Below the pieces are notes generated by a model, which saw only the letters and a list, made by a program, of their open reading frames with translations, was not told the DNA's origin and made no database searches. Below, piece by piece: positions 6,041 to 55,487 of a DNA stretch of 64,000 bases (positions within the stretch are counted from its first letter, which is position 1; every line of letters starts with the position of its first letter). The DNA is from a virus: the IMG/VR virus record IMGVR_UViG_3300020193_000004, positions 1 to 64,000 of that record. One strand, given 5' to 3'. Position numbers and translations under genes: made by a program.

Positions 6041-8233
6041 TTAGCCCCTACGCGTCGACTGCGCCTGGTCGAGGAGCGTCTTGATCTGCTGTGCCGCCGC
6101 CTCCACGTGCTGCTTGTGGTTGGGGAAGGCCTGGGCGAGGTTCTTGGTACCTTCGTAAGCCGTGTGCTGGTCCCCCGGAAGCAGCATGGTCCGCAGGACC
6201 CCCGGCCGGTCCGTGTGAAGCCGATCGAAAACCAGCTGTCCGTGCCCCGGGATCTTCAGCTTCCACCGACCCGAGGGGAGGTCAGCTGTGTGCCCGCCCA
6301 GAGGGGCGAGAACACTCTGGATCTTGGTCGTAATGGCGTGTCCCTGCTGCAGCGTCACCCCGGGGATCCGATCCCTGATTCGCTCTGGCAGGTGCGGGAT
6401 GTTGATCTGCACCCGAGCATCCTTCTGCATCCCTGCGAGGACGGCCCCGTGCTTCGACATCTTCGCGTGCAGGTGGTGCATCTCCTGGATGGAGGGGCGC
6501 AGCAGGATTCCAAGCCCTACCAGCTCATTCAGGTCCGATAGGGCTCGCGGATGTGCTCCATGTCCACTACCGTGCATGGTATGAGACAGGGGCTCCAAGA
6601 CCGAGTGAGCTGCCCGCGCTGCGATGCCTACGCGACCAGGTCGACGAGACAGCACCTCGGCACCAGAGGCAGCGAGCGACGTTGCGTACGGGCTCATCAG
6701 CATCCCAAGTCCAGCGGCCTCGTGCATCGCCAGGCTCCGCATCTGCTTCTGCTCAGGGGTGAACTGGGTGCTCTTGGCGTTGCGATGCAGACCCACGGCC
6801 AGCGCCCCGAGACCTGCGGCGGTCCCTGCGGCGAAGAGTGTCTTCGGGTGTGCAGCGAGGCTGGACAGCACCGAGGCCGTCTTCTTGTACATCTTCGACT
6901 CCCTCCATGCGACGATGTGCTTGCAGTCCTGCTCGCCCTTGCCGGCGACGGACTTCTTGTAACGCCAGTCCGGGCACGTGCACCCGACCCCGCCGCCCCG
7001 CAGGCGCGTGATGCTGTACTCGCCGCCGTCGCCGACCCGGACCTTCTCGATCTCCTTGCCGGTGAGCAGGCGGTTCATCTGGTCGACGTGGCGCTCGAGC
7101 TTGGCGTCCGACCGGGTGTCCTGCTGGACCGCGGTGACGAAGGACTTCCGCTTCGCGTGGTCGAGGAAGTCGTCCCACTTCTTGGGGTCGTCGCTCCGGA
7201 AGTGCGTGTTGGCGCGGTGCTTCGCCTCCCGCTGCTCCTTGGAGATCGGGAGGGCTGCGGTCTTCTTCAGGGCGGCCGACTGCGCCCGTACGCCCGTGAA
7301 CGACGGGCCGAACTCTCCGAGTCCGGAGACGTTGCGTATGCGTTGCTGTACCTCAGCCTCACTGCCGCCCTGCGCCCAGTCGAAGACACGCAGGCGCCCA
7401 TCCGGCGTCCTCTGCGTGTTCTTCCCAAGGTCGCCGATGTGCAGACCCTTGCTCCGCGCCCAGTCGTGCAGGGGAGCGTGCGCCTTCTGCTCCTCTGCAT
7501 GGGCCCGATCATAGATCTCGGACACGACGTCCTCGTCGGCACGGCGGCGCGCTCGAACAGCACCAGCATCACCCCAGTTGTGGTCGTGCCAAGCCCTGAA
7601 CTTGCTGCGTACCTGCGCGGATTCCCGCGCTGCTGCTTCGCCGGCGTTCTCGCCGGGAATGTACTCCCACACCTGCGAGACCTGGCCGGGCGCAGCTTCG
7701 ATGTGATGGATCGGCCTCGGCAGAAGCCCTTCGGGAGCGTGCTTGGCCGTCTCGAAGCGCTCACGTGCGTGCTGGGCCTGTGCCTCCGTCGGATGGAACA
7801 TGTCCTTACGGACCTGCAGGCCTTCGGGGCCGAAGACCAGATGCGACACCTGCTCCCCGCCCTTACCGAGTACAGACTTCTCGCCTCGGTGCACGGCATG
7901 CCCGAGAGGCGTGTTCTTCAAGGCCCCGGCCGCGTGCAGACGCGCTGAGAGGGCGGCCACGGCCTCGGGCGCTGCCGCGCGCAACAGCTTCAGTCCCTTC
8001 GCAGTGGCGGTCTTGTCCGCCGGGTGGTCGAAGCGCTCTCGCCACTTCGCGATGATGGTGTTCCGCTCCTCTGCGGACATGGACCGCCAGGCACGCAGGA
8101 CCGCCCGACGCGCCTCGGAGGTGAGCGTACCGGCGACGGCTCCAGACCACTCACCCGGAGGTCCGAGGGAGGAGAGGATGCCAGGCACGTCCGTGCGTGT
8201 GTCCTGCGTTACTGTCGGCATGGCGAAGAGCAT
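6041..8233 (-). CDS. multi-module protein (kinase-like, SWIM zinc finger, membrane segments, RNase-like C-terminus); putative polyprotein
   Basis: LGKGGE...EYIPGE...GDLGKN...DGRLRVFD; CTCPDW-x11-CKH; three KTA and one KDA at module borders. Confidence 0.7.
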   Translation of the reverse strand: MLFAMPTVTQDTRTDVPGILSSLGPPGEWSGAVAGTLTSEARRAVLRAWRSMSAEERNTIIAKWRERFDHPADKTATAKGLKLLRAAAPEAVAALSARLHAAGALKNTPLGHAVHRGEKSVLGKGGEQVSHLVFGPEGLQVRKDMFHPTEAQAQHARERFETAKHAPEGLLPRPIHHIEAAPGQVSQVWEYIPGENAGEAAARESAQVRSKFRAWHDHNWGDAGAVRARRRADEDVVSEIYDRAHAEEQKAHAPLHDWARSKGLHIGDLGKNTQRTPDGRLRVFDWAQGGSEAEVQQRIRNVSGLGEFGPSFTGVRAQSAALKKTAALPISKEQREAKHRANTHFRSDDPKKWDDFLDHAKRKSFVTAVQQDTRSDAKLERHVDQMNRLLTGKEIEKVRVGDGGEYSITRLRGGGVGCTCPDWRYKKSVAGKGEQDCKHIVAWRESKMYKKTASVLSSLAAHPKTLFAAGTAAGLGALAVGLHRNAKSTQFTPEQKQMRSLAMHEAAGLGMLMSPYATSLAASGAEVLSRRPGRVGIAARAAHSVLEPLSHTMHGSGHGAHPRALSDLNELVGLGILLRPSIQEMHHLHAKMSKHGAVLAGMQKDARVQINIPHLPERIRDRIPGVTLQQGHAITTKIQSVLAPLGGHTADLPSGRWKLKIPGHGQLVFDRLHTDRPGVLRTMLLPGDQHTAYEGTKNLAQAFPNHKQHVEAAAQQIKTLLDQAQSTRRG

Positions 8234-10236: not shown

Positions 10237-10405
10237 CAGTACTCCCGCTCCAAGGCTTGCCCGTCTTCTCCGCGTACCGGCTCTCTACCTGCTGGTGGAC
10301 GACCCGGCTCATCCCGCCCTCGGCTTCCGCATCCTGCTTGAACCAGTTCTTGAGGTCCGGGTCCATGCGGAGCTGCAGGCGCTCCTCCTTCTTCGGCTTC
10401 GGCAT
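10184..10405 (-). CDS. ribbon-helix-helix (CopG/Arc-like) DNA-binding protein
   Basis: ERLQLRMDPDLKNWF...GMSRVVHQ strand-helix-helix pattern; GGAGGT RBS. Confidence 0.55.
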   Translation of the reverse strand: MPKPKKEERLQLRMDPDLKNWFKQDAEAEGGMSRVVHQQVESRYAEKTGKPWSGSTDAATSTGSNDGREGDPA

Positions 10406-10418
10406 GGTCGAGGACCTC

Positions 10419-10787
10419 CTACTCGAGGACGAACTCGTCGTAGAAGCCCAGGGTCCCCGAGCCGGTCACGACGGCAAATGCGTCCTTGTTGTTCATGAGG
10501 AAGACCCGGTCGTTGCGGTCAGCTCCGACCAGGTCACCGATCGCGTGGGCGTACTTGATGAAGTCGCGGATCAGGATCTTGTCCCCGGGCCCGAACCCAG
10601 GGTCGACCTCCTGTCCGTCGTCGCGAAGCGCCGGGGTGACGCGGATCACCTCGGCGACCGCCTCCGTGGTCTTGCCCGTCTCGAGGTCGCGAGCCAGGAC
10701 GAGCCCGCCCTTCGACTGCGAGATGGGCTTGAGGGTGCGACAGAGCGCCCAGCCCGTCCGAGGCCGGATCTTGTTCACGTCGTACAC
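10419..10787 (-). CDS. groES: GroES-like co-chaperonin
   Basis: IRPRTGWAL, SKGGLVL mobile loop, AEVIRV, GDKILI, MNNKDAFAVV match the Cpn10 pattern. Confidence 0.8.
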   Translation of the reverse strand: MYDVNKIRPRTGWALCRTLKPISQSKGGLVLARDLETGKTTEAVAEVIRVTPALRDDGQEVDPGFGPGDKILIRDFIKYAHAIGDLVGADRNDRVFLMNNKDAFAVVTGSGTLGFYDEFVLE

Positions 10788-10788
10788 G

Positions 10789-11142
10789 TCAGCCTCCGGA
10801 CTGCCGAATGGCGCCCTCGTCCTCGCCGAGGGACTCCCCTTCAGGGACGTGGAGCGTCGGGGCGGTGTCGGAGGGCACGGCGAACAACGTGGCCTGCCCG
10901 ACGCGCTCGCCCTTCCAGTTCATCCGGACGACCTCCGCGGGGAGCTGCGCGAGCTGCTCCTTGAGCCACTTCGGCGCGGCGTTGGTACGGTCGCGGTCGA
11001 AGAGGGCGAGGATGTCGTTGGCCCAGAACACGTCCGTACCGCAGGCGTAGATGACGATGGCGCGCTTCCGCGACTTCGCGTCGTACACGATCGCCTGGAA
11101 CAGGGCTCCCTCAGCGAGGGCCACGATCTTGCTCTTCGACAT
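10789..11142 (-). CDS. hypothetical protein
   Basis: Codon bias, operon packing. Confidence 0.6.
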   Translation of the reverse strand: MSKSKIVALAEGALFQAIVYDAKSRKRAIVIYACGTDVFWANDILALFDRDRTNAAPKWLKEQLAQLPAEVVRMNWKGERVGQATLFAVPSDTAPTLHVPEGESLGEDEGAIRQSGG

Positions 11143-48261: not shown

Positions 48262-48523
48262 GGTCTCACCGAAGGCCGAGCGGTACCTGGAGCGCACAGC
48301 CCGCATCCTGTCACGGGACGCGGGCCGACGCCTCAAGCCGGAGGATGTCCTCGAGCTCCTGGTGGAGCTGGCGATCGCGGACGAGGGACTCTACGACCCC
48401 GAGACCGGGGCGTCGCTCAGTAGTACACGGGCTCGGAGCCAGAGCGAGAGAGTCCGAGGCTCAGAACCTTCTGGGCGGTTCGCGCTCCAGCACCTAAGCC
48501 AACGCCTTCGGGACGAGGATTGA
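48251..48523 (+). CDS. small hypothetical protein
   Basis: Overlap coupling; 3' end overlaps the convergent gene. Confidence 0.45.
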   Translation: MRLEVSPKAERYLERTARILSRDAGRRLKPEDVLELLVELAIADEGLYDPETGASLSSTRARSQSERVRGSEPSGRFALQHLSQRLRDED

Positions 48524-51500
48524 CCGCCTGGTCGGCGGTTCTCTTTAGGGTGGCCAGCCCCAGGCCCACTGCTCCAGTACCGAGCGCCCCGTAGCGGACC
48601 TTCTCAGGGATAGCGTTCCAGTGTGTACCGAGCTCGCGCAGGATGTCTTCCGCACCTGCCGCTTTCACCACCCCTGTGGCTGCGGGCGCAGCACCTGCCT
48701 GCACCGGACGAGACAGCTTCGGGAACTCGATGGGCTTGGTCAGCGCTCTGGCGATGCGGTTTGCCGGACGCGTAGGGTCCACCGCATACTCAGAGTGCTC
48801 CGCGAGGCCCATGGGCACCTGCACGCCGTGTGCTTTCAACACCCCCACGGACTGCCGAACATCGTCCACGCTCGGCAGTCCGTGGATCCCGCGCTCACGT
48901 GCTGCAGCACCCAGTGCCTGCGCCTGTTCGTAGTGCCCGACGACATGGGGGTCGAACGCACTCAAGATCCCCTTGCTGACGGGGTGCAGGCCGCGTTCGC
49001 CCCTGGTTCCGGCAACCAGGCCCGCATGCGCTGCCCCCTCGTAGTACGGACGGAATACCTGCTTCAGGCCTGGGATTTTCGTCCCATATCGCCCGAGGAG
49101 GTGTGCCTTGGCGATGCCTGCGGTGGCAGCCAGCGCCTCTGGAGACGCGAAGGCATAGTGCAGTATGTCGTAGAGGTTCGCCTGTTTTATTGCAGCTGCG
49201 AGCGGTAGCTTGCCGGTGAAAAGGGGTTGTCCTTCTCTCCCCGGGACCGCCTCAAGTGCAGTACGGTTCCCATAAGTCTTCACGACACCAGGCACCTTAT
49301 CAATGGTGTAACCCTGTGTCTTTCCCAGTGAACCCCACACCCGCTGAGCGGCCTCCGACACTTGTTCACCGCTCTTTAGCTCCTGATTCGGCAAGCGCCG
49401 CATGACCTCCCCATACAGCTTCTTTCCCAGACCAAACCCCTGAAACTCGTCATTGATGTGGGTACCAACGATACGACCGTTCAACGTCTCCATATAGCCG
49501 ATCGGACGCCCATTCAGATGCATAGTATGGTCGACCAACCCCGGAAGATATTCGTGCGCTTTGGACACGACCTGCACTGATCGACGCAGGCGACTCCCCG
49601 CCAGCTTCTGCCAGTTGCCGCGGAAGGGGTTGATCGGGATGTGCTTGCCCTGATCCGGGTTCAGGCGAGGGGCGGCGAGCCGCGGCTGCTTCATGCCAGG
49701 CACGCGCGGCCGCTCCCCTTCGTCTCCCACTCCAGGGAGCTCCGCGGCGAGCTTCACACTCCCTTGCTTGGCCCAAGGACTCGAGGCCACCTGCAGGGTG
49801 GGCGCCGGCGGGCGCTGCGTCGGTATCGGGGTCTGCTGCTTGCTGGCGTACGCCTTCAGCGCGATTCCCCCTGTCAGCGCACCAGCCCCAAGGAGGATCT
49901 TGCCCTTGTTCCCGGCTACGAACCCGCCAACACGATTGAGCCCGCTCCGCAGAGCACTGCCAACTCCTCCATCGGCATGCGCCGCGGTGTTCCGTACAGC
50001 CAGAGCAGTATTGGCGGTAGCCGCTTCTGCAGCGGGCGGCGGAGGCGTCACGATCCGTGCGCGCCCCTGCGCGTCGAAGTGCGGGATCCGCGCGGCCAGA
50101 TCCTTCGACCGCTGTGCAGCTACGGGGTCCACGACGGGGCGAGGGGGACGCTCCACGCCCACCCACGGGACCGTGGGGGCCTTGCCCGGGTTCTGCAGGA
50201 CGTTGTGGATCTGATGCTCCGTACGGAAGGCCAGCCGTTTCACGGCAGCGCCTTGGCGCAGGGCCTCTTCAGGAGAGCTCGCCTTCAGTGCGTCGGCCGC
50301 TCCGCGCTGCAGACGGTCGTACCGAGCGGCGATGGCCCTCTGCTTTGCCTCCTCCGAGATGGCGACCTTCTCGAGGGACGACAGCACGGCCGAGCCGACA
50401 GGCACCTCTGCGAGGTTGGACTTCCCCGCGGTCTTCTGGAGGACCCCGAACGACCTCTCTGGTACAACACGTGCTGCATGTGCATGTGCCTGTCGTGCGA
50501 ACTCTTCGGAGGACTGCCCGAAACGTGCCTTCTGCGTGACCACCACTGGCGCTGCACGGCCAACCACGTCGAGCTCGTCAGGTATCACCTCAGCGTACAT
50601 GTGACGCCCCCGCTGCCTTACACGCACGCGAGGGAACCTCCGCGCCCCTTGTTCTGTCGAGCTGTACGCAGGAGAAGCACCCGCCGACACTGAGGCACTG
50701 CTGATAGCTTCCTCTACTTCGGGACCAGCGGCCTTTCGTCCATTCTTGAAGTAGATGCCTGGGCCTTCGTTGTCCAAGGCTTGCCCGAGCAAGAAGGTGT
50801 CCCCCGGCTCAGCCCACTTCGTCCTTGCGAGCGCCGCAGGGGTAACTGCCGCTCCGAGTACTCCACCGAGCAATCCTCCAGCAAGAGCGCCGCGAGTACG
50901 GTTTTTCTTGTCAAGAGCAGCACCGGCTCCAGCACCTGCAAGTCCAAACCCGAGCCCACCAGCAATGCGTGCGCGTAGGGGCGTAGCTACGAGTCCCTCG
51001 AGGGACGACAGTACATTGGCTGCAGTCTTGGAAGAGTTCTGCGAGAACCCGAGACGGTTGAGGGCGCTGGCCCTCTGCTTTGCCTCCTCCGAGATGGCGA
51101 CCTTCTCGAGGGACGACAGCACGCCGGAGGATTTCTGTGCTCGTCGCGCATGTCCCCACAGGCCCTTCGCCAAGGCCAGCCCGACCATCCCTCCAACGAT
51201 GCCCCGCTCTACCGGCGTCCAGCCAGCGATCTTCTTGCCGTGGTTCTGGCGGTCGTGGAAGATTCCGGCCGTCTTGGGCGGGGCCTGCGGTACTGCAGGA
51301 TGTACGGCGTCCCAGAGCTTCTTGACGCCATAGCCGCCCAGGTGGTGGGCGGCGTGGAAGATTCCGGCCGTCTTGGGCGGGGCCTGCGGTACTGCAGGAT
51401 GTACGGCGTCCCAGAGCTTCTTGACGCCATAGCCGCCCAGGGCCGCGGCTCCTGTCGCCAGTGCAGCCCCACCGGCGAACCTACCAGGACGCGCACGTGC

Positions 51501-52238
51501 GTACTCCGCGATCTCACGCAGACCGACACCTCGATAGTTCTTCGAGCCCTTGATGTACTCTGTCGGTATGGAGTCGACCGCGTGCTCGGCATATGACTGG
51601 AGACCGTGCTGTGCGCGCGCAGCGAGCTCGTTGTCCCTGATCAGCGCTGCCTGCTGGTGTGCATTGAAGTCGAGAAAATGGGCGCCCTTTAGACGGTCTA
51701 ACGTACGCTGCCTCCACGCGTGAAACCCGCCTGCCGTTTCTGGGTTCTCCTGTAGCGGAATCTTCCAGGTTGGTACGGACATCTTGACCGTAGCGGCTCC
51801 GCCTTCTCCAGGGCGGAGCTTAGCGGCCTGAGCGGCGTACATTGGCGCCTTCAGGTTCTTGGACGTCGTCACGTACGCCTTGTCTGCCCACTCCTTTGGG
51901 AAGTTGCCCTTGTTAATAACGCCGGCGGCGCCACCCCGGTTTGACGGCAAGAGCCCCTGTTCGCGGATCCGTGCCGCAGACTCCGCCGTAGTGCCGTGGT
52001 AGAGCGCCTGCCGTCCTGTGACCCGTGGAACCGACATCTTGGCGAGCACGCCACCACCTGCGAGCGCTCCAACTCCCGTAACGGCATCATCGGTCGTGGA
52101 GGGCTCTTGCCGGTCCGCACCCAGCTTCTGGAGCTCGTCCCCGAAGCTGGTCCAGTGGACGGTCTCTGCTGCGAGCTCGGTAATGCTCGCCTCCTTGGTC
52201 AACGGCCCCGCGAGGAGTCGATATAGACGCGCACCCAT
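48417..52238 (-). CDS. 1273-aa multi-module protein (ART-like, glycine zippers, GNAT); putative polyprotein
   Basis: LYHGT...GLLPS...YVTT; FQGFGLGKKLY; more than 10 K-x-A motifs at module borders; internal DNA repeats. Confidence 0.75.
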   Translation of the reverse strand: MGARLYRLLAGPLTKEASITELAAETVHWTSFGDELQKLGADRQEPSTTDDAVTGVGALAGGGVLAKMSVPRVTGRQALYHGTTAESAARIREQGLLPSNRGGAAGVINKGNFPKEWADKAYVTTSKNLKAPMYAAQAAKLRPGEGGAATVKMSVPTWKIPLQENPETAGGFHAWRQRTLDRLKGAHFLDFNAHQQAALIRDNELAARAQHGLQSYAEHAVDSIPTEYIKGSKNYRGVGLREIAEYARARPGRFAGGAALATGAAALGGYGVKKLWDAVHPAVPQAPPKTAGIFHAAHHLGGYGVKKLWDAVHPAVPQAPPKTAGIFHDRQNHGKKIAGWTPVERGIVGGMVGLALAKGLWGHARRAQKSSGVLSSLEKVAISEEAKQRASALNRLGFSQNSSKTAANVLSSLEGLVATPLRARIAGGLGFGLAGAGAGAALDKKNRTRGALAGGLLGGVLGAAVTPAALARTKWAEPGDTFLLGQALDNEGPGIYFKNGRKAAGPEVEEAISSASVSAGASPAYSSTEQGARRFPRVRVRQRGRHMYAEVIPDELDVVGRAAPVVVTQKARFGQSSEEFARQAHAHAARVVPERSFGVLQKTAGKSNLAEVPVGSAVLSSLEKVAISEEAKQRAIAARYDRLQRGAADALKASSPEEALRQGAAVKRLAFRTEHQIHNVLQNPGKAPTVPWVGVERPPRPVVDPVAAQRSKDLAARIPHFDAQGRARIVTPPPPAAEAATANTALAVRNTAAHADGGVGSALRSGLNRVGGFVAGNKGKILLGAGALTGGIALKAYASKQQTPIPTQRPPAPTLQVASSPWAKQGSVKLAAELPGVGDEGERPRVPGMKQPRLAAPRLNPDQGKHIPINPFRGNWQKLAGSRLRRSVQVVSKAHEYLPGLVDHTMHLNGRPIGYMETLNGRIVGTHINDEFQGFGLGKKLYGEVMRRLPNQELKSGEQVSEAAQRVWGSLGKTQGYTIDKVPGVVKTYGNRTALEAVPGREGQPLFTGKLPLAAAIKQANLYDILHYAFASPEALAATAGIAKAHLLGRYGTKIPGLKQVFRPYYEGAAHAGLVAGTRGERGLHPVSKGILSAFDPHVVGHYEQAQALGAAARERGIHGLPSVDDVRQSVGVLKAHGVQVPMGLAEHSEYAVDPTRPANRIARALTKPIEFPKLSRPVQAGAAPAATGVVKAAGAEDILRELGTHWNAIPEKVRYGALGTGAVGLGLATLKRTADQAVNPRPEGVGLGAGARTAQKVLSLGLSRSGSEPVYY
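50333..51123. repeat. 56-bp exact dispersed repeat (50333-50388 and 51068-51123)
   Basis: Encodes VLSSLEKVAISEEAKQRA twice. Confidence 0.9.
51254..51441. repeat. 89-bp exact near-tandem repeat, period 99
   Basis: 51254-51342 equals 51353-51441; encodes LGGYGVKKLWDAVHPAVPQAPPKTAGIFH. Confidence 0.92.
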
Positions 52239-52661: not shown

Positions 52662-55487
52662 CTACTTCACTGAGACGGCACGGGCATTCGAGCCCACAGC
52701 GAGCCGGTGGAGCTTCTTCTCCTCCTGCTGTACCTCGAGACCGCGCAGGAGGTGGATCATCTGCTCATCCGTGAGGCGGGCAGAGCGCCTCGCACGTGCC
52801 CCAGTCGTGGAGAACTTCGGGTCCTTGTAGCTCGACCACGCGTTCATGCCTCCCAGAACACCGCCACCCAGGAGACCAATCGCCGCGGCGCGTGGCAGGG
52901 CATCCTTCATCGGAAGGCCGCTCTTCAGGCTCTGGACGGCCGCGGTGACTACCTGCGTGTAGCCTGTGATGAGCGCACCGAGTGCTCCGACCGCCAACGT
53001 CTGCTTCAGGATCTCCCTCTTGCGCTCGTCATCGGTCTTGGCCTTCGACACCAGGCCGTCTCCGCTCCCGGGCTTCGCTGCCTCCCGGTAGTAGGCTCGC
53101 AATGCCTCGACGTACTCCTGCTCACGCTCCTGCAGCTCCTTGGGGAGCACCACCTTGGTGGGGTCCACCGCCTCCTCGAGGTGAGGGGCGAACTCCTTCA
53201 TGTAGGCCTCCATGATCGGCCTGTCGGACTTCACCAGGCGGTAAGGCTGCATGGGGAGGCGCTGCGCTGCAAGGCGGCGCTCCTTCGTCTTCTGGTCCGC
53301 TGCGGTCTTGATCGCCGCCGCCTCTGGGAGGGACCCGCGGTAGGACCACGGGCGCTCCTCCCTCAGCATCTGCGCCTTGATCTCTGGAGTGAGACCCTCC
53401 CAGGGCATCCGCTGTGAGGTCCTCAGCATCCCATTGTGCTCGTACTGGTGCGACCAAGGCGCCTGCTCCACCTTCCACCCGTGGCCGCCCTTCCCCAGGG
53501 AGTTCCAAAGACGAGTGGCCTCCGGAGAGACTTGTCCGTCGCTCTTCAGGGACGCGCCAGGCATACGACGCGCAACCTCCCCGTAGAACTTCCTTCCGAG
53601 CCCGAGGTTCCGGAACTCCTTCTCGATCTCGGTACCCATGATCTGCCCATCACGGGTCACCATCCGCCCAGCGGGCTTCCCACCGACCAGGAGCGTCCAG
53701 TGTGTCCGATCTGGATGCACCGAGCTTACTTCAGAGACCACCCGAGTCATTGCACGTAGACGACTCCCTGCCATCTTGGTGGCGCCACCCCCGGCGCGAG
53801 CCGCGAGGCCGTCCTCGAGGAGGTCCAGCATGTCCTCGACGGTGTCGCAGGGAGCCTCGGCGGTCTTGTCGAGGTTGCCGCGCAGCTGCTTGTTGCGCTC
53901 GTCCTTGTTCCACGCCACCTCGTAGGCCCACTCGTCCGGCGAGCGCTCACGCTTCAGCGGGTTGTAGAAGACGGGCTGGCCCTCGAGGACGCGACTGAGC
54001 ATGCCGGACGGCGCGATCAGGTTCATCGTGTCCTTCGCGACCTGCGTCTTCGAGAGAGGGACGCGCGTGACGTAGCGACGGATGAGGACGTGCCGCTGGT
54101 CCTCGGGACGGTGCGCCTGCCCGCCGGCGCGCACGCCGCGGGCCTCGGCCTGGTGGATCTTCTCGGGGTTGAAGTGCCCGTCGACGTTGGCGACGAAGGT
54201 GGTGTTGCCCAGGTTCAGTCCCTCGCCGCCAGCGGAGGAGAGGAGGATGACCTTCTTCGTCCCCGCCTGGTAGTCGGCGACCGCCTGTGAGCGGCTCTGC
54301 TCGGTGGAGCCCGCCTGCCCCTTGCCCATGAAGATGCCGTGCGCGATGCCGCGGTCCTTCAGGCCTTGGCTGAGGACGTCGACCCCACCCTGGATCATGT
54401 TCGAGTAGATGATGACCTGCCCGTCCGGCGTCTCCTTCAGGTGCGTCTCCACGTCGTCCAGCACCCGCTTGATCTTGGGGGAGCGCTGCGCGGACTCCGC
54501 GAGCGTCACCGACTTGTTGACGGTGTGGATGGCGTTCGAGACCTGGCGCGCCTGGGTCATCTTGTTGAAGATGTTGTTGATATCGTTAGTCTTGAGCTTC
54601 GACGAGCCGAAGCGGAACTTCAGTGCCGTCACCGGGTCCATCTTCCCGACGACGTACTGGTAGAGCTCCTGCTGCTCGGGGGTCATGTCGACCTTGACCG
54701 TCTCCACGGTCTTCTTCGGCATCGCGCCGCCACCGGTCGAGGCGTCGACGTGGTGGATGTAGGGGTTCAGCAGCAGGCGCACGACGGGGGTGTTCTGGAG
54801 CTTCCCGTCCTCGGTCATGAACCGCCGCTCGAAGTTCTCCTTCGTACCGAGGTGGTGCTGCCCGTCCGTCATCGCGTCGACGAGCGGGACCAGGTCCGCC
54901 GGCGTGTTGCTCACGATCGAGCCCGTCAGCCCGATGAAGTTGCGGTGATGCTTCCGCGCCTCGCGGAGCGCCTTACCGGTGATCCCGATGTTCTTGATCT
55001 TGTGGAGCTCGTCGTAGATGACGGTGTCCGCCCCCGAGGACTTGATGTACTTCTCGGGGTTGGTGCGGAAGAGGTCGTAGCTGACGACGTGGTAGCGCGC
55101 AGACGGGTCCGGGTCGTCTACATGACGGCCCGTGCCGTTGGCGACCTCCTCGGCGTTGCCGAACACCGCGGCCTTGTCCTTCGTGAACTTGTGCACGCCC
55201 TCGTTGGTGAAGTTCTTCCGCAGGGAGGCCGGGGTCACGATGAGCGCGCGGTCGGCCATCCCGTTCTGGCGGAGACGATCGAACGCCGCGATCGCGGTGA
55301 CGGTCTTCCCGGAACCGACGGGGTGGCTCAGGATGAGGTTGCCGTTCTGCCGCACGGCCTTCTGGACGGCGTCCTCCTGGTGCGGACGGAGCTCAACGCC
55401 AGCCTGCAGGGCCGAGCCCACAGCGGCCGCGAGCTTCTGCCCCAGGTTGACGAAGATGTGGAAGCCCTGCCGCTCTCGCATGGACAT
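52662..55487 (-). CDS. SNF2-like SF2 helicase fused to a GNAT module and membrane tail
   Basis: GSGKT, DELH, LTGS, GGEGLNL, QAEARGVR; FRNLGLGRKFY. Confidence 0.85.
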   Translation of the reverse strand: MSMRERQGFHIFVNLGQKLAAAVGSALQAGVELRPHQEDAVQKAVRQNGNLILSHPVGSGKTVTAIAAFDRLRQNGMADRALIVTPASLRKNFTNEGVHKFTKDKAAVFGNAEEVANGTGRHVDDPDPSARYHVVSYDLFRTNPEKYIKSSGADTVIYDELHKIKNIGITGKALREARKHHRNFIGLTGSIVSNTPADLVPLVDAMTDGQHHLGTKENFERRFMTEDGKLQNTPVVRLLLNPYIHHVDASTGGGAMPKKTVETVKVDMTPEQQELYQYVVGKMDPVTALKFRFGSSKLKTNDINNIFNKMTQARQVSNAIHTVNKSVTLAESAQRSPKIKRVLDDVETHLKETPDGQVIIYSNMIQGGVDVLSQGLKDRGIAHGIFMGKGQAGSTEQSRSQAVADYQAGTKKVILLSSAGGEGLNLGNTTFVANVDGHFNPEKIHQAEARGVRAGGQAHRPEDQRHVLIRRYVTRVPLSKTQVAKDTMNLIAPSGMLSRVLEGQPVFYNPLKRERSPDEWAYEVAWNKDERNKQLRGNLDKTAEAPCDTVEDMLDLLEDGLAARAGGGATKMAGSRLRAMTRVVSEVSSVHPDRTHWTLLVGGKPAGRMVTRDGQIMGTEIEKEFRNLGLGRKFYGEVARRMPGASLKSDGQVSPEATRLWNSLGKGGHGWKVEQAPWSHQYEHNGMLRTSQRMPWEGLTPEIKAQMLREERPWSYRGSLPEAAAIKTAADQKTKERRLAAQRLPMQPYRLVKSDRPIMEAYMKEFAPHLEEAVDPTKVVLPKELQEREQEYVEALRAYYREAAKPGSGDGLVSKAKTDDERKREILKQTLAVGALGALITGYTQVVTAAVQSLKSGLPMKDALPRAAAIGLLGGGVLGGMNAWSSYKDPKFSTTGARARRSARLTDEQMIHLLRGLEVQQEEKKLHRLAVGSNARAVSVK

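Follow-up and report, generated by a model that had tools for sequence, protein, structure and literature searches.

At positions 6041..8233 of the minus strand, the first 64 kb of IMG/VR virus record IMGVR_UViG_3300020193_000004 encode a protein of 730 amino acids. These 64,000 nucleotides are the whole stretch that was analysed and are called the window here. The record measures 115,144 bp and is rated 66% complete, so the full phage genome is ~175 kb; the GC content of the phage is ~65%, and the record encodes gyrase B, an SNF2 helicase and a tail-fibre-like protein. An earlier reading of the bare sequence, referred to below as the original prediction, had described the 730-amino-acid protein as a polyprotein with kinase-like, SWIM, membrane and RNase-like modules, each opened by a Lys-x-Ala (K-x-A) tripeptide. 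The open reading frame is real, and its start is likely Met5, as the database gene call (P0002, 726 amino acids) and the N termini of homologs both point there. By sequence comparison, the protein consists of exchangeable modules strung together at conserved K-x-A motifs. Its features are as follows.

6041..8233, minus strand: whole open reading frame, 730 amino acids (P0001), likely true start Met5 at 8221
8006..8233, minus strand: N-terminal leader, residues 1-76, four short helices in the AlphaFold2 (AF2) model, conserved
8006-8014, minus strand: site 1, K74-T-A76, which ends the leader (...PADKTA) and is followed by Thr
7256..8005, minus strand: variable, putative effector module, residues 77-326, minimal-kinase-like, GC content at third codon positions (GC3) 0.77
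7256-7264, minus strand: site 2, K324-T-A326, which ends the variable module (LKKTA)
6875..7255, minus strand: SWIM zinc-finger module, residues 327-453, GC3 0.98
6917-6982, minus strand: zinc signature C418-x-C420...C437-x-H439 (CxCxnCxH)
6875-6883, minus strand: site 3, K451-T-A453, which ends the SWIM module (YKKTA)
6416..6874, minus strand: Gly/Ala-rich helical module, residues 454-606, which opens SVLSSL, GC3 0.72
6416-6424, minus strand: candidate site 4, K604-D-A606, which ends the helical module (MQKDA) and is followed by Arg
6044..6415, minus strand: C-terminal alpha/beta domain, residues 607-730, order a-a-b-b-b-b-a (model m612126fe0677)

All four K-x-A motifs lie where they had been placed, at both the residue and the nucleotide level, and the strings LGKGGE, EYIPGE, GDLGKN, DGRLRVFD, CTC...CKH, SVLSSL and HLPERIRDR are all present in the protein. 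A fifth motif, KHA at residues 164-166, is followed by Pro. The full-length AF2 model, built on a 74-row alignment with a mean predicted local distance difference test score (pLDDT) of 66.6, divides the chain in the following way.

Residues 11-70: leader, helical, pLDDT 75-95
Residues 74-92: gap with site 1, pLDDT below 50
Residues 77-323: variable module, poor, pLDDT 25-70
Residues 330-450: SWIM module, pLDDT 97-98
Residues ~454-566: helices after the SWIM module, pLDDT 50-78
Residues 567-610: gap with site 4, pLDDT below 50
Residues 611-730: C-terminal domain, pLDDT 60-91 (ten-residue block means)

No confident predicted fold crosses any of the sites; folds across them would have counted against the original prediction. 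Site 2 sits where a weak helix borders on the SWIM module.

The build of the protein is modular and its joints are conserved. Among seven close homologs (42-64% identity), every one keeps all three KTA-type sites, with the modules between them swapped, inserted or lost. The fixed frame consists of a helical leader running into K-[TS]-A, and of a K-x-A followed by the SWIM core and KTA. The leader is conserved in all seven and in P0009, and six of the seven homologs have the Gly/Ala-rich helical part behind the SWIM core. Between sites 1 and 2 each lineage differs, the segment being replaced by unrelated modules or almost absent.

P0005: C92/NlpC-P60-like peptidase
P0006 and P0007: DUF5754-like segment, joined in P0007 by a stretch with an HExxH-like string (alignment read by eye)
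P0008: GemA-like piece
P0004: almost nothing

In P0003 and P0007, an extra module that starts KIAG / KTAD and ends KTAS stands behind the SWIM finger. The pattern extends across the wider family, which we counted among the 150 SWIM-relative representatives listed, taking the expectation from the same proteins. Where the chain continues past the finger, K-x-A is found 4 to 24 residues (mostly 8-12) beyond the SWIM CxH in 93 of 115 proteins, against 18.1 expected, and the corresponding upstream window holds it in 59 of 67, against 16.4. The residue after the downstream motif is G, S or A in 61/93, and the middle residue of the motif is free (T, V, K, S, E, I, L). The claim that the modules are bounded by K-x-A is thus upheld both in the close homologs and family-wide.

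K-x-A is also specifically enriched in the head proteins of this clade. The head-gene block lies at genome 67-77 kb, outside the window, and we scanned nine of its proteins, picked by position and not by motif, for all 400 a-x-b motifs. K-x-A ranked first (47 versus 17.1 expected, z 7.2; runner-up z 2.7), whereas it was at expectation (35 versus 37.1) in twelve control proteins, among them gyrase, RNA polymerase, terminase and several of unknown function. Shuffling each protein separately gave a K-x-A excess at p<=0.013 in seven proteins, including a 501-amino-acid scaffold-like protein with 12 sites, one every 10-60 residues, two of its small neighbours, and large proteins at 85.9 and 108.9 kb. 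As had been proposed, this motif grammar extends across the genome, concentrated in the head-gene block and several large proteins by motif scan and shuffles. A 387-amino-acid protein of the block matches the annotated major capsid protein of the Salmonella phage Arash, the nearest cultured relative here (25.6% identity, E 1e-21), the ESM Atlas places it nearest a "phage major capsid protein" cluster (score 0.98), and by these matches it is the major capsid protein. Recognisable relatives of this capsid protein among GenBank phages are confined to Arash and three Vibrio phages. Its K-x-A at residues 27-29 is kept in five of five orthologs, down to 51% identity, as the preceding residues drift, and in Arash a KEA stands at a similar position of the capsid protein (read by eye). 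In the Arash head block, gp218-226, K-x-A is again the top motif (46 versus 21, z 5.4); because L-x-K ranks second there, the data hint at a longer rule, L-x-K-x-A.

A candidate for the enzyme that would act at this motif lies in the same block.

Genome 72691-74601: protease candidate, 636 amino acids, PHROG 18299 at E 9e-05

The candidate has a GL-x-K-x-A near its N terminus that is conserved in three distant orthologs. Together with its ortholog in a related phage (G005) and Arash gp222 (31% identity, E 6e-31), it shares the elements F-R-H-H-x-N-K, S-M-[GA] and C-S-I-C...Y-C-x-H, and it has conserved His and Ser residues. The C-S-I-C...Y-C-x-H element may bind zinc, and the family has no Pfam match. 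Head proteases of T4 and of SPN3US/phiKZ act at three-residue motifs (A-x-E in SPN3US, with Ser preferred at P1') and take propeptides off ejected head proteins (PMC10052503). Since T4-type and phiKZ-type heads show the same signature for their own rules, we read K-x-A as the head-protease site of this phage clade, which we regard as very probable.

Within the 730-amino-acid protein, the SWIM module is the best defined part. C418, C420, W423, C437 and H439 do not vary across 74 aligned sequences, 27 of which match Pfam SWIM (PF04434) at E<=0.05 (best 3e-05), in agreement with the finger originally proposed; the protein itself scores 13.5 bits (E 0.053), under the gathering threshold of 19.6. 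An exhaustive profile-free search returned 240 relatives of 111-1495 amino acids, all through residues ~320-455, with the SWIM module at the start, middle or end. Stand-alone relatives of 130-230 residues carry a short N-terminal leader of the type F-x-D-E-L-x-K-x-A. Among stand-alone relatives (P0088, P0100, P0114, P0123, P0124, P0133, P0134, P0142 and P0146), a last K-x-A is often followed by a conserved C-terminal peptide of 15-18 residues, of the type [AS]-[IL]-R-G-x-A-A-x-x-[IL]-L, that could be a removable targeting or anchoring peptide. GC3 is 0.98 in the SWIM core versus 0.72-0.83 elsewhere in the gene, and this difference fits a later accretion of modules around an old SWIM core.

Beyond this family, the protein stands apart. 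A tblastn search of 50,697 GenBank phage records with the whole protein and the SWIM core gave no match, the PDB gave none by sequence at E<=10, and 185,579 bacterial and archaeal species genomes held no close relative. Profile comparison of the whole protein yielded only the weak SWIM match in Pfam and two families of unknown function in PHROGs (E 0.003-0.009). With the full 730-residue model, Foldseek returned nothing and VIA-align just helical-hairpin rows (Z<=6.2).

The variable module is kinase-like with moderate support from a predicted structure and motifs. In the ESM Atlas, the model of residues ~90-323, part of a whole-protein model with a pLDDT of 0.51, has protein kinases in ten of ten structure rows (template modelling (TM) score by query 0.53-0.59), and the nearest named feature clusters are APH, ABC1/RIO1, OspG and YrbL. 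Candidate kinase motifs can be read by eye (GKGGE at 123-127, VRK, HIGDLGKN and VFDW), though they are not alignable to a profile. The candidate Asp and Asn are 4 residues apart; in the kinase catalytic loop, the Asn usually lies 5 residues past the Asp. Hardly any sequence follows the late Asp. Residues 77-323 have no sequence homolog among 1.84 billion representatives besides their own record, and Pfam kinase families did not match the protein at E<=1. The kinase-like domain of the original prediction is thus partly supported by the Atlas rows and the motifs, but it finds no kinase profile match and its AF2 model is poor.

Behind the SWIM finger, the proposed membrane module was overstated, as it amounts to a single, borderline hydrophobic Gly/Ala-rich helix at residues 465-483 (Kyte-Doolittle maximum 1.41 at 465). 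Gly/Ala-rich, glycine-zipper-like hydrophobic helices with basic residues behind them recur in K-x-A-rich head proteins of this phage (genome 69438-75608) and of Arash (gp221 and gp224; L020:7427-7978, 10299-10919), and at window 6770-6874. Such helices may be membrane-active after ejection. A module joint at the fourth site was not supported: with Arg behind it the KDA is atypical, and a single homolog retains it.

For the C-terminal domain, the dedicated model has a pLDDT of 74.5 and a predicted TM score of 0.69. Fold searches (Foldseek against PDB and BFVD; VIA-align wide) gave no significant match. Rows for RelE, ParE and HigB2 were weak (Foldseek E 0.5-1.5, TM 0.3-0.4; Z 3.1-3.3), and the best Z, 4.5, was to an unrelated chain. 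With matches to the toxin folds below threshold, we did not adopt the RelE/BECR-type RNase that had been suggested. Homologs of the domain are P0003 and, weakly, P0004, with none other, and a short stand-alone homolog was not found.

The SVLSSL string that opens the helical module had been linked to another K-x-A-rich protein of the window.

48417..52238, minus strand: protein of 1273 amino acids with 15 K-x-A motifs, including KTAANVLSSL and a duplicated ...PPKTAGIFH

In this protein a string of the SVLSSL type indeed stands beside K-x-A (KTAANVLSSLEG), and GVLSSLEKVA occurs twice. The two proteins have the short KTA-x-VLSSL motif in common but no homologous module (blastp E 1.3), and this motif is the only similarity of the 730-amino-acid protein to the other K-x-A proteins of the genome. 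The 1273-amino-acid protein has a GC3 of 0.70, unusually low against ~0.9 in most genes, and contains a tandem duplication repeating ...VPQAPPKTAGIFH. Two further large proteins are encoded at genome 85939-92366: one of 929 amino acids, which has 15 K-x-A motifs and matches DUF6582 / PHROG 16160 at its N terminus, and one of 1022 amino acids, with a ferritin/Dps-like domain. These two are possible cargo chains.

The locus position of the 730-amino-acid gene is kept in three related phages. A GroES-like co-chaperonin gene (window 10419-10787, minus strand; PHROG 3188, E 7e-06) adjoins it in a conserved block. No structural genes are recognisable among the neighbours, and the gene context, a conserved block of unknown genes, is not tied to head or packaging genes as would be expected of polyvalent proteins. 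At the syntenic position of one relative, G003 (L007:9932-10381), there is a bare SWIM module of ~150 residues with no leader or other modules. In G005 (L013:6429-10540), a 444-codon open frame with a SWIM module lies directly downstream of an SNF2 helicase homolog, with the terminase and head genes close by on its other side. The window has its own gene of this family.

52662..55487, minus strand: SNF2-family helicase, 941 amino acids, with K-x-A motifs; Pfam SNF2-rel_dom E 4e-18, PHROG 62

This helicase might be a functional partner of the SWIM module; a complex prediction of its residues 1-520 with the module scored 0.00, which counts neither way. Elsewhere in the genome, the large terminase (1028 amino acids, genome 78720-81806) contains an intein with a LAGLIDADG homing-endonuclease domain, matching Pfam Intein_splicing and LAGLIDADG_3 as well as PHROG 675. 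The genes for RNA polymerase beta' (1069 amino acids) and beta (1074 amino acids), at genome 97213-103643, are full-length and unsplit; in Arash, the beta and beta' subunits rank among the most abundant virion proteins (PMC10585845).

Taken with the head-gene motif, the modular chain suggests a cargo polyprotein processed by the head protease, a K-x-A version of the cargo systems of T4 and phiKZ and of polyvalent proteins; we give this reading a probability of roughly 0.55. The precursor, consisting of the leader, a variable effector (here kinase-like), the SWIM module, the Gly/Ala-rich helical module and the small alpha/beta domain, would be synthesised at a late stage of infection and incorporated into the prohead as it assembles. 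There the head-maturation protease, for which the N-terminal domain of the 636-amino-acid protein is the candidate, would cut after Lys-x-Ala, at A76, A326, A453 and perhaps A606. The freed modules would be retained in the head and then accompany the DNA into the host cell. There, the kinase-like piece would modify host proteins, and the SWIM piece would have DNA as its target or the SNF2 ATPase of the phage as its partner. Head loading and protease cutting are probable because K-x-A also marks the capsid and scaffold proteins of the phage, and the 730-amino-acid protein carries a motif common to its capsid, scaffold and protease proteins. That this protein is itself a substrate is somewhat less certain than that K-x-A is a head-protease site, and we infer its cutting, and hence the name polyprotein, along with its packaging, its injection and all its biochemical activities. 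A wider proposal, to which we give even odds, is that Lys-x-Ala followed by Ser, Ala or Gly is the rule of an uncharacterised head-protease family in a wide clade of 150-200-kb, RNA-polymerase-packaging myophages that includes Arash, and that it serves as a universal joint for swappable effector cassettes (kinase, peptidase, SWIM, ART, GNAT, SNF2) that are loaded, cut and injected, with the SWIM module as a near-universal packaged component.

A number of observations weigh against processing of the 730-amino-acid protein. Within the 115-kb record, its gene is ~60 kb from the head block, amid genes of unknown function and the GroES-like gene, and the protease assignment comes from the weak PHROG 18299 match. 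Arash has no SWIM-module homolog, and the study of its virion contains no cleavage analysis (PMC10585845). About one fifth of the SWIM relatives are without the downstream K-x-A. The leader, which occurs once in the 115 kb of phage genome, was found only on SWIM-module proteins when the phage's own genome and short proteins were searched for it on other cargo, which leaves a role as a general targeting signal unsupported. In the protein itself, the K-x-A count is at chance by shuffles (5 versus 5.4 expected; 3 versus 1.7 for KxA[SAGT]), and the Thr after site 1 and the Arg after site 4 depart from the usual Ser, Ala or Gly. On a crude site-scoring matrix, site 1 did not outscore control K-x-A sites; with 64 head-protein sites as its basis, the matrix is too small and overfitted for classifying the sites of this protein, and only the preference Ser>Ala>Gly right after the motif is clear from it. 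Site 3 lies within the fading part of a helix (438-460) that leaves the SWIM finger in the AF2 model.

The chance-level count, the helix at site 3 and the atypical residues after sites 1 and 4 would also suit a polyvalent protein that works as one polypeptide and loses at most its leader, and many polyvalent proteins are thought to act or transfer whole (PMC5512222). K-x-A would then be a junction or docking motif, such as a scaffold or capsid-interior contact, or a recombination joint kept for folding. We consider an uncut chain unlikely, as K-x-A near the capsid N terminus and at every 10-60 residues of the scaffold-like protein makes the pattern of T4-type protease sites and not of domain linkers; the freely varying middle residue also points to selection at the protein level and not on a joint in the DNA. 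Another possible explanation is a non-virion, intracellular and perhaps membrane-tethered protein of DNA metabolism or regulation, in which SWIM works with the SNF2 ATPase and the K-x-A motifs are intrinsic ends of the SWIM family. In phages and bacteria, SWI2/SNF2 ATPases are known to be accompanied by SWIM domains (PMC5512222), the SWIM gene of G005 directly follows an SNF2 gene, the neighbours of the 730-amino-acid gene are not recognisable structural genes, and the flanking motifs travel with the SWIM module in the 240 relatives. This explanation is nonetheless decidedly improbable to us, since it does not account for K-x-A as the top head-block motif in two distant phages, or for inserted modules that bring their own K-x-A ends. 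That the three KTA tripeptides mean nothing, the phage being GC-rich and the protein containing Ala and Lys, would agree with the count of 5 against 5.4, but we give it almost no weight, as it is already contradicted by the conservation of three sites in every close homolog and by the five-fold excess at module ends in 115 diverged relatives.

If K-x-A is a head-protease site, the mature virion proteome and the injected effectors would be readable from sequence for a large, mostly uncultured phage group. Such a site would also explain how new injected functions evolve, through cassettes swapped at cut sites, and would make Arash a tractable model, with the same motif bias in its head proteins and a virion proteome that already exists. 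The motif could further allow foreign proteins to be directed into such capsids, a use to which the T4 targeting sequence is put. In the literature searched, no description appears to exist of the Lys-x-Ala rule, of the protease family, or of such a site linking exchangeable enzyme cassettes: no paper was found that pairs "K-X-A" with "prohead", and the phage G paper contains no cleavage-site analysis (PMC12484599).

Comparison with known systems places the proposed cargo chain among several relatives in principle. The T4 internal proteins IPI-III and Alt carry a capsid targeting sequence that is cut off by the prohead protease gp21 at L/I-x-E. Prohead loading, trimming at a motif also present on capsid and scaffold proteins, and injection with the DNA would all be shared, as proposed here by analogy, and the stand-alone SWIM relatives likewise have short N-terminal leaders that end in the motif. 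The present system differs in that its motif is Lys-x-Ala in place of hydrophobic-x-Glu, its leader is family-specific and spans 76 residues, and several internal sites would free several modules per chain.

The ejection (E) and inner-body proteins of phiKZ and SPN3US are cut by gp175 and gp245, respectively, at (S/A/G)-x-E (PMC10052503, PMC5694885), and SPN3US propeptides are cut at several places (PMC10052503). These are likewise large myophages that pack many proteins, including RNA polymerase; Arash has 116 virion proteins, RNA polymerase beta and beta' among them (PMC10585845). Long propeptides, several cuts, a three-residue rule that leaves the middle residue free, and a preference for Ser after the cut are further likenesses. 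In contrast, both the motif and the protease family are different, the latter here being PHROG 18299-like with C-S-I-C...Y-C-x-H, and the SPN3US cuts remove propeptides without separating unrelated enzymes.

Phage polyvalent proteins, described by Iyer, Burroughs, Anand, de Souza and Aravind in 2017, combine minimal kinases that lack a C-terminal lobe, ARTs, GNATs and SNF2 modules (PMC5512222). Like them, the 730-amino-acid protein is a chain of unrelated conflict-type domains, with at least two of effector type in an architecture that varies among relatives, and their repertoire of minimal kinases, ARTs, GNATs and SNF2 is all seen or proposed in the K-x-A proteins of this genome. The little sequence after the late Asp of the kinase-like module recalls the kinases without a C-terminal lobe. 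Polyvalent proteins are proposed to be processed by zincin peptidases of their own (PMC5512222), whereas the 730-amino-acid protein is without a peptidase domain and its joints carry the presumed head-protease motif. In the same paper, SWIM comes up solely alongside SNF2 ATPases, as their companion.

As in SWIM domains (PF04434) that accompany SWI2/SNF2 ATPases, the CxCxnCxH signature is invariant, and an SNF2 gene is present in the window and adjoining in G005; unlike them, the phage module has a helical part of ~90 residues before the finger and is flanked by K-x-A. Minimal effector kinases (OspG, RIO/ABC1 and APH types, and the T7 protein kinase) resemble the variable module in their ~200 residues, Gly-rich loop (GKGGE), VRK Lys, H-x-x-D-L-x-x-N and VFDW Asp. 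The module departs from them in having no profile match, a poor AF2 model, an Asp-Asn spacing one residue short and a kinase activity that is putative. The principle is already known from the T4 internal proteins, the phiKZ/SPN3US E proteins and the polyvalent proteins, and the 730-amino-acid protein would extend it to Lys-x-Ala.

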